Below are positions 46,844 to 47,510 of a stretch of 64,000 bases of DNA, piece by piece. This DNA comes from a virus. Taxonomy: Duplodnaviria; Caudoviricetes. The notes under the pieces are model-generated. The model was not told the DNA's origin, made no database searches, and saw only the letters and a program-made list of their open reading frames with translations. The stretch is from IMG/VR virus record IMGVR_UViG_3300034062_005355. One strand, 5' to 3'. A program made the position numbers and the translations under genes. The stretch's first letter is position 1, and the number at the start of each line of letters is the position of its first letter.

Positions 46844-46933
46844 GGAGAGGTGGCAGAGCGGTCGAACGCGGCGGTCTTGAAAACCGTTTTAGGGGAGACT
46901 CTAACGGGGGTTCGAATCCCTCCCTCTCCGCCA
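46844..46933 (+). tRNA. tRNA-Ser(TGA)
   Basis: GGAGAGG/CCTCTCC-GCCA; loop CT-TGA-AA; long variable arm. Confidence 0.95.
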
Positions 46934-47510
46934 AGTAAAGAGAACCGTGAGTCCGCGGATGGAAACAACCATAGGACGATCAAACGTCATACTTTACTTA
47001 AGACCCCACGATTAACGAAAAGTACTTGTTCGTTATGGTGTGTGACCCTGACTTGAAGGCTTCAAGGCTATGGGGGAGGTAACACAGAGTGAAACTTGTA
47101 TAATCTTTCATGAACGAGATTAATTGATTGGGTGAAATTCCGTCAGGTACATTGGAATCTCAAATTAGAAGAGTTCCCCATTATGGATTAAGGGGGTAAG
47201 GGGCTTTAATTAGTCGTAATAGAATCCACAAGTCGTAAGAATACTGAACAATCTTACGGTACACACTCTTCTTCCGAGTGAGACTCACCACGTAACTTTG
47301 GGGGTAGGGTGAAGATGTTCTGAGGATAGCACTGAACGCTATGTTGAAAACTCTATGACAAACCGATTAGATAAGTAAACATGGACGGAGTGTGAAAGTA
47401 CAGACCCACCGTGGATGGTTACTATTGTCTAACAAATCTTAGACATATCGGTGTGGGATACTATATCGCCAAATCTAAAACTTAAAAGGTTCTCTCAAAA
47501 TGGCGTGGGG
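46933..47510 (+). ncRNA. candidate large structured ncRNA (~580 nt)
   Basis: no convincing ORF; long-range pairs AGAGAACC/GGTTCTCT and CCCCACG/CGTGGGG; many local hairpins; starts at the tRNA 3' end and finishes at a terminator-like T run. Confidence 0.6.

Follow-up and report, generated by a model that had tools for sequence, protein, structure and literature searches.

To our knowledge, large RNAs with complex folds are rare in bacteria and phages, and nearly every class that has been studied does something unusual, such as catalysis or the formation of RNA nanocages. Two of these classes, GOLLD (RF02032) and ROOL (RF03087), are the closest described systems to the RNA element of the present study, which lies at positions 46934-47532 (+) of the viral record IMGVR_UViG_3300034062_005355, a 64,000-nucleotide stretch of Caudoviricetes DNA (hereafter the window, meaning the whole stretch analysed). 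GOLLD is a large, ornate, pseudoknotted non-coding RNA of phages and prophages that was first found in lake metagenomes; it exceeds 800 nucleotides (nt), lies co-oriented in or next to arrays of transfer RNA (tRNA) genes, comprises a variable 5' half and a conserved 3' half, and has no linked protein and no known function. ROOL averages 581 nt, has many helices, several pseudoknots and 10 nucleotides conserved at 97% or more, and lies near phage tRNA islands; its sources are rumen samples, Firmicutes, Fusobacteria and relatives, and its function is likewise unknown. Both GOLLD and ROOL form RNA-only cages, the purpose of which is unknown (cryo-electron microscopy (cryo-EM) literature, bioRxiv 10.1101/2024.12.08.627333).

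In the present study, the element is revealed as a genuine RNA gene whose family is not represented in Rfam; it is of the same kind as GOLLD and ROOL, belongs to neither, and is likely to be a third class of RNA alongside the two. Like GOLLD, the element is large, ornate and pseudoknotted, is co-oriented with phage tRNA arrays, combines variable modules with a conserved part and lacks a linked protein; like ROOL, it has many helices and several pseudoknots at a similar length (about 599 nt for the window copy). The differences from GOLLD concern size (copies range from a minimal form of about 430 nt to a maximal form of about 600 nt), the distribution of conservation, which in the element extends across a whole core of about 430-530 nt with three insertable modules, and the lack of any sequence or structure similarity detectable with cmscan or nhmmer. 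Compared with ROOL, the complexity of the element (at least 12 helices and four pseudoknots) is similar, whereas nothing aligns, long runs rather than a few nucleotides are invariant, and the carriers are exclusively contigs of uncultivated jumbo phages. A prior description of such an RNA was not found in literature searches, and publication elsewhere is possible.

The element occupies 599 nt between tRNA-Ser(UGA) and tRNA-Ile(GAU), within an array of 25 tRNA genes called by ARAGORN, every one on the plus strand, spanning 34.9-49.5 kb of the window. The GC content of the element is 40.8%, compared with 31.5% for the window overall, which is low-GC DNA of phage type, and approximately 25% in the flanking coding DNA, and no credible open reading frame (ORF) was found within 46934-47532. 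An earlier note, made from the letters of this DNA, had proposed a GC-richer, ornate non-coding RNA with no convincing ORF directly behind tRNA-Ser. These observations are correct: all of the strings quoted in that note sit where it placed them, tRNA-Ser(UGA) ends at 46933 according to ARAGORN, and the homologs described below support a large, multi-pseudoknotted family in phage tRNA arrays. The 3' end, which the note had set at 47510, lies instead at approximately 47527-47532.

Homologs were obtained in several ways. Using the 421-amino-acid (aa) neighbour protein as a probe, 25 related IMG/VR loci were retrieved, some of which carry the element at 75-86% identity and at differing places in their tRNA regions; the closest relative, L001, is without it. 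Two independent core patterns yielded 16 and 33 viral contigs, and a tolerant pattern yielded 114 metagenome stretches and no match in 185,579 bacterial and archaeal genomes (one genome per prokaryote species). No match to the element was observed in a blastn search of 50,697 deposited phage genomes, and nothing was confirmed when the upstream 141-aa ORF was used as a probe for related loci. With sequence conservation this high, profiles for nhmmer were judged sufficient. After deduplication, 103 distinct full-length copies were retained, forming 66 clusters at 90% identity (effective number approximately 63) and reaching down to 66% identity to the window copy; the latter represents the maximal form, because all three optional modules are present. 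The element is single-copy on every contig, including five large contigs, two of which are rated 100% complete by CheckV and measure 269 and 294 kb, sizes that identify the carriers as jumbo phages. To date, the only known sources of the element are viral and metagenome contigs from jumbo phages that are uncultivated and low in GC. In the tRNA regions of relatives, matches to the Rfam 'freshwater-1' motif were observed at L052:2331-2392 (-) with 71.2 bits and at L028:996-1056 (+) with 61.9 bits, both below the gathering score of 72 for that motif, and these matches would fit a freshwater origin.

Covariation among homologs, the absence of which the earlier note had named, together with that of a stable transcript, as refuting its candidate, is abundant. 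Using RNAalifold on 26 sequences, 81 consensus pairs were obtained, 35 of which show compensatory double changes, and helices H1, H5, H6, H9, H10, H11 and H12 are 94-100% paired in the 103 sequences. A mutual-information scan of all columns against all columns, corrected by average product correction and assuming no prior structure, recovered the helices and, outside the nested fold, four pseudoknots with Watson-Crick covariation (PK1 to PK4), which in register are 97.6%, 98.5%, 95.9% and 87.5% paired, respectively, with most shifted registers at 50% or below. Because kinship among sequences can inflate covariation counts, pair states were also mapped onto a maximum-likelihood tree, and the independent changes between strict Watson-Crick pair types (switches) were counted by parsimony, giving 40 for H1, 30 for H5, 40 for H10, 45 for H11 and 24 for H12, and 21, 13, 8 and 33 for PK1 to PK4. 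G-U and U-G intermediates are frequent and A-C and C-A intermediates are absent, indicating that the plus strand is the RNA. With at least 12 helices, four pseudoknots and three optional modules in total, the element is a stand-alone, strongly selected and intricately folded RNA. The parts of the structure and its boundaries are, from 5' to 3':

46844-46933 (+), tRNA-Ser(UGA) with an encoded CCA, the upstream boundary of the element (ARAGORN; Rfam tRNA, 53.8 bits).
46934-46998 (+), optional 5' module, a branched domain closed by 46933-46940:46992-46999 and found in 31 of 103 copies; 22 pairs were obtained with RNAalifold, 98.7% paired, with 8 compensatory.
46999-47527 (+), conserved core, which begins with AAGACCCCACG and ends with the 3' terminal helix, according to the homolog alignments.
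47013-47035 (+), hairpin H1 (47013-47018:47030-47035), 99.8% paired, with loop L1 at 47019-47029; the loop has a palindromic core (AGUACU in the window), and its 3' half forms PK1.
47052-47081 (+), hairpin H2 (47052-47057:47061-47066), 94.5% paired, the loop of which (47058-47061) pairs with 47078-47081 as PK2; the PK2 pair 47059:47080 switches from GC to UA 12 times.
About 47084-47170 (+), optional insert A, a branched module gained or lost as one block and present in 28 of 103 copies; 20 pairs, 94.6% paired, with 14 compensatory.
47171-47174 (+), the 3' strand of PK1, pairing with L1 positions 47024-47027 and detected in the mutual-information scan; shifted registers are at most 50% paired.
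47176-47217 (+), hairpins H3 (47176-47183:47189-47195) and H4 (47200-47205:47212-47217) with near-invariant linkers; the H3 pair 47178:47193 is CG in 74 and UA in 29 copies, and the H4 loop UUAA is kept in 102 of 103.
47232-47260 (+), hairpin H5, 9 bp, 99.9% paired, the loop of which (47246-47250) pairs with 47316-47320 as PK3; shifted registers of PK3 are at most 41% paired.
47264-47320 (+), hairpins H6 (47264-47268:47276-47280; 100% paired, 6 switches) and H7 (47283-47290:47299-47305; 98.5% paired) and the near-invariant GGGGGUAGGGUGAAGAUGUUC with the 3' strand of PK3.
47329-47393 (+), helix H8 (47329-47332:47390-47393), which closes insert B; 93.6% paired, 19 switches.
About 47333-47389 (+), optional insert B, present in 82 of 103 copies; 16 pairs, with 15 compensatory.
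47405-47456 (+), helix H9 (47405-47411:47449-47456; 100% paired, 20 switches) enclosing hairpin H10 (47427-47432:47439-47444; 99.8% paired).
47467-47527 (+), 3' domain, comprising H11 (47484-47493:47518-47527), H12 (47494-47497:47506-47509) and PK4, which joins the H12 loop (47501-47505) to 47467-47471.
47524-47532 (+), a run of U at 47524-47530 followed by two spacer nucleotides; four U at the start of the run pair with the A-run of H11, and the remainder connects to the next tRNA.
47533-47605 (+), tRNA-Ile(GAU), the downstream boundary, beginning 2 nt past the U-run (ARAGORN, Rfam).

The 3' domain was also evaluated in a separate alignment, in which 92.3% of the cells are paired compared with 74.9% after shuffling (0 of 500 shuffles reached the observed value), 18 of 19 pairs have changed on both sides, and slid registers are 28-60% paired. 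Approximately one-tenth of the copies have a different 3' domain, in which, by eye, the same plan appears to be kept: an outer stem, a hairpin inside it, and a loop that faces a complementary run further upstream. Between the covarying stems, long runs are invariant, e.g. GACCCCACG, GGCUAUGGGGGA, AAUCCACAAG, CACGUAACU and GGUUACUA.

Several pairings drawn in the earlier note are consistent with these results. The helix AAGTAAAG:CTTTACTT (46933-46940:46992-46999) is 98.4% paired, with four of its eight pairs compensatory, and the hairpins TAACGAA/TTCGTTA (H1), CGTAAGA/TCTTACG (H5) and TGTCTAA/TTAGACA (H10) are strongly supported by the homologs. The pairing of GGTTCT with AGAACC also holds and extends to 10 bp (AAAAGGUUCU/AGAACCUUUU), forming the conserved terminal helix; the note had taken this stem for an alternative terminator. 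The other pairings were not sustained. ATAGC/GCTAT is weak at 64.6% paired, and the competing helix 47329-47332:47390-47393 (H8) is better. In the pair AGAGAACC:GGTTCTCT, the GGTTCTCT side varies while AGAGAACC is fixed, resulting in AC and CA mismatches, and compensation is observed with the local partner AGAACC. The pairing of CCCCACG with CGTGGGG is found in 67-73% of cells, with 8 of 31 copies paired at the two central positions, no switch of pair type and 235 unpaired cells; CCCCACG is invariant, and CGTGGGG covaries instead with the adjacent CUCA/CCNN strand (H12) and with 47467-47471 (PK4). Because these two long-range pairings fail in the homologs, the pseudoknot drawn from them does not exist; the RNA is pseudoknotted in another way, through PK1 to PK4.

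Known families were searched using cmscan with all 4,227 Rfam families and relaxed filters over positions 46800-47620. No family reached E<=10 on the element in the window, nor E<=1 on its copies in 11 homolog loci, and searches of the whole window at the Rfam gathering threshold and of the region at E<=10 gave only tRNAs and spurious tRNA overlaps at this locus. The Rfam search that the earlier note had proposed for recognizing a known class thus returned no family for the element, and of the two options left in that note, membership in GOLLD or ROOL is dismissed for lack of a match, whereas a new class is supported by more than 100 diverse members and their covariation. The Rfam scans also gave no match to RNase P, group I or II introns, HEARO, omega-RNA, retrons or OLE, and the sole match of the transfer-messenger RNA (tmRNA) type (permuted tmRNA, 15.7 bits, E=0.71) overlaps the T-arm of tRNA-Ser. 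In the same cmscan run, a true GOLLD was detected as a positive control with 335 bits at 536-948 (-) in the homolog locus L060, 4.6 kb from the element copy and on the same strand as that copy. GOLLD was likewise found in three of the five large element-carrying contigs (317-328 bits), 10-29 kb from the element and on the same strand, and because both RNAs coexist in one genome, the element is a family separate from GOLLD. Consistent with this result, an nhmmer profile of the element with filters off gave no match in the GOLLD loci. The ROOL model gave no match in the window, the homolog loci or the five whole element-carrying contigs, the contig search being performed without a positive control.

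The three contigs with GOLLD are L175, L176 and L177, and in the latter two a tRNA-Met is located approximately 24 nt after GOLLD. No GOLLD is present in the 64 kb of the window, and one complete genome has the element and no GOLLD. A detached 5' domain of GOLLD acting in trans was considered and rejected, because GOLLD is preceded at its own loci by 400-500 nt of GC-rich sequence that lacks ORFs, and because the element occurs without GOLLD both in that complete genome and in the window.

With regard to the neighbourhood, no opposite-strand tRNA was observed in any flank: every tRNA there points the same way as the element. In 39 of the 103 copies, a tRNA follows the U-run at a distance of no more than 6 nt; upstream, a tRNA ends within 90 nt in 25 copies and within 6 nt of the core in 11 of these. 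Which tRNAs flank the element differs widely from copy to copy, and some copies lack a neighbouring tRNA altogether. Where tRNAs do flank it, they are whole genes of varying identity; elsewhere the flank is unrelated sequence, and split-gene halves are not seen. No conserved neighbour protein is consistent, the best family being present in 20 of 98 loci at a distance of approximately 2 kb. In L001, the slot between tRNA-Ser and tRNA-Ile (7180-7512, +) is filled by a 110-aa ORF with an N-terminal hydrophobic segment, suggesting that the element is an accessory cassette of a hypervariable tRNA region. In two copies, a suppressor-type tRNA with the anticodon CUA (designated 'Pyl' by ARAGORN) abuts the element, at 281-355 of the flank in L038, and the tRNA-Ser(UGA) of L001 (7066-7149) scores best as tRNA-Sec, with 38 bits, below threshold; these are hints of unusual decoding tRNAs that these phages may encode.

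The arrangement of the 3' end bears on how the RNA might be produced. There is no room for a promoter before the abutting tRNA, indicating that the downstream tRNA is transcribed through the 3' helix. In a scan for sigma-70 promoters, sites were no commoner than in shuffles, and such a scan may not suit a Bacteroidota phage. The stem and the 7-U run resemble an intrinsic terminator; however, the 24-nt loop holds a hairpin and a pseudoknot, and a terminator scan made no call at the 3' stem. Because the U-run pairs with the A-run and the H11 extension shows an A:U to G:C compensatory change, the 3' stem is considered structural, or at most a leaky terminator. From the abutment of tRNAs and the read-through, we propose that the element is produced together with the tRNAs and set free by the enzymes that process them: it would be transcribed within the tRNA polycistron, its 3' border would be freed when RNase P cuts the abutting tRNA, and its 5' border would be freed by 3' maturation of the preceding tRNA. 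Phage T4 produces two small stable RNAs of unknown function that are co-transcribed with tRNAs and freed by tRNA processing; these RNAs, of approximately 120-140 nt, are not ornate, whereas their route of biogenesis is the one suggested here.

The window encodes further features associated with RNA and translation. A full-length tmRNA is located at 55164-55554 (-) (Rfam RF00023, 54.8 bits), and a second tmRNA was found in the relative L060 (5-424, 111.6 bits). An RNA ligase of the T4 Rnl1 type, an enzyme type linked to tRNA repair, is encoded at 21107-22219 (-) (PF09511, E 1.6e-18), and a homing endonuclease gene (phrog_314) lies within the tRNA array at 37044-37724 (+). In addition, approximately 10 weak, over-long tRNA-like Rfam matches (27-42 bits, 86-142 nt each), none of which was called by ARAGORN, were observed at 41652-45868 (+), in a 4.7-kb stretch without an ORF of at least 120 aa; these could represent intron-bearing, degenerate or otherwise unusual tRNA-like genes. 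The ORF-free segment at 46002-46192 (+), with approximately 44% GC and just upstream of tRNA-His, shows 86.5% identity to L001:6784-7031 and may be another conserved non-coding element. The window additionally codes for thymidylate synthase and an FtsH-like protease, and the proteins encoded at 2942-4843 (+) and 7838-8947 (+) carry a C-terminal sorting domain of the type IX secretion system (Por_Secre_tail) and a GEVED domain, pointing tentatively to Bacteroidota as the host group.

Herein, we propose that the element is a stand-alone, trans-acting structured non-coding RNA, single-copy in the tRNA arrays of jumbo phages, that would form a particle comparable to those of GOLLD and ROOL, a reading to which, by analogy, we give about an even chance. 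The freed RNA would fold into a compact particle acting during infection, as has been proposed for GOLLD and ROOL. This particle would be an abundant, RNA-only or RNA-dominated structure, possibly a homo-oligomer, and might be linked to the translation-related gene set of the phage, i.e. the tRNAs, tmRNA and RNA ligase.

A lead on self-association comes from loop L1. A Watson-Crick palindrome of at least 4 nt is present in L1 in 80% of copies (47 +/- 5% in shuffles), and a palindrome of at least 6 nt is present in 37% (12 +/- 3% in shuffles). These palindromes switch among GAUAUC, AGUACU, AAGUACUU, AUAU and GUAC, and among nine loops tested only L1, which is variable, and L4, with its invariant UUAA, stand out. 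OLE, a large conserved RNA found in extremophilic Firmicutes, is bacterial and has protein partners of its own; in these respects it differs from the element, and its palindromic kissing loop covaries between palindromes in a pattern similar to that of L1. OLE dimerises through this loop, and such a signature marks symmetric kissing loops in OLE and GOLLD; moreover, some pseudoknots predicted from covariation in ROOL and GOLLD proved to be intermolecular (bioRxiv 10.1101/2024.12.08.627333). By analogy, the L1 palindromes may be regarded as a weak lead towards self-association, and PK1 to PK4 could be intermolecular. A bolder reading, which seems doubtful at present, is that the element is a third independent phage RNA that self-assembles into an RNA-only dimer or cage via an L1 kissing loop, with some pseudoknots formed in trans, and that it is deployed together with GOLLD.

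Several points weigh against the proposed particle. First, folding of the single window copy is no better than that of shuffles (minimum free energy z = -0.43 on the plus strand and -1.32 on the minus strand), and perfect inverted repeats are not above chance relative to dinucleotide shuffles (18 versus 12.8 +/- 4.6 for 7-mers and 7 versus 3.1 +/- 2.3 for 8-mers); for this reason, the structure was settled with homologs. Second, the partners of the invariant C-runs and G-runs, and with them the global junction topology, come out differently in two alignments that are equally uninformative on this point. Third, the proposed function is derived only by analogy: in setting and in complexity the element resembles GOLLD and ROOL, two RNAs that themselves have no known function. 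Fourth, PK1 and the L1 palindrome share nucleotides, and the in-register pair of the palindrome, 47022:47025, does not stand out, as approximately 22 of 1,491 close column pairs pass the same filter. Finally, a ribozyme or an RNA with a specific binding role would account equally well for the strong conservation of unpaired positions.

This last point is pertinent to two other explanations. The better of these, which we still regard as unlikely, is that the element is a decoy or sponge that sequesters a macromolecule of the host or phage, such as the ribosome, a ribosomal protein, an RNase or a defence nuclease. Precedents for this type of action are 6S RNA and, with its protein partners, OLE. 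Single-stranded segments that are strongly conserved, in a gene that is stand-alone, single-copy and trans-acting, are what might be expected of such a decoy, and the patchy presence in related phages suits an accessory or counter-defence role. In addition, GOLLD pulls down ribosomes and OLE presents protein-binding pockets (cryo-EM paper). However, no candidate partner is identifiable and no gene is linked to the element, and from sequence nothing separates the decoy idea from the particle proposed above.

Slightly less probable is a ribozyme, or the RNA subunit of a ribonucleoprotein enzyme, acting on RNAs of the translation apparatus, for example through the processing, repair or modification of tRNA or tmRNA, rather than serving as a passive structural particle. 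The long, invariant and apparently unpaired runs beside freely covarying stems, the multiple pseudoknots, and the embedding among tRNAs in a genome with a tmRNA and a T4 Rnl1-type RNA ligase are consistent with such an activity. Nevertheless, the Rfam scans revealed no similarity to RNase P, group I or II introns or ribozyme families, a conserved protein partner is absent from the vicinity, the sequence alone points to no cleavage or ligation site, and close relatives such as L001 manage without the element, with the 110-aa ORF in its slot.

The two remaining explanations are disfavoured. A cis-acting element of the tRNA operon (a terminator or attenuator, a processing platform or an insulator), which would have no function once excised, is improbable. 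The 10-bp stem with its U-run and the constant co-orientation within or beside tRNA arrays might suggest such a role; however, a length of 430-600 nt with at least 12 helices, four pseudoknots and invariant unpaired bases far exceeds what is needed. The 39 of 103 copies in which a tRNA begins no more than 6 nt after the U-run require read-through, the U-run is engaged in a compensating pairing with the upstream A-run, the terminator scan is silent, and the flanking tRNAs vary or are missing. The RNA of a mobile or selfish element in tRNA arrays (a degenerate group I or II intron, a retroelement RNA or a transposon guide RNA) is highly improbable: despite the varying array position among related phages, its absence from the closest relative and the homing endonuclease genes in the same tRNA region, there is no match to intron, HEARO, omega-RNA or retron families, one copy per genome, no associated cluster of reverse transcriptase, nuclease or transposase, whole tRNAs or unrelated sequence in place of split-gene halves in the flanks, and strong purifying selection on structure.

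The family offers more than 100 diverse natural sequences and a well-supported secondary structure with four pseudoknots, and the natural minimal (approximately 430 nt) and maximal (approximately 600 nt) forms would aid the design of constructs; it can be used directly for in vitro transcription and cryo-EM and for the mapping of lake-metatranscriptome reads. Moreover, the coexistence of the element with GOLLD in single genomes provides a natural system for asking what RNAs of this kind do and why a phage needs two of them. If the element were indeed an RNA-only assembly deployed together with GOLLD, the two assemblies would have distinct and complementary jobs in taking over host translation.

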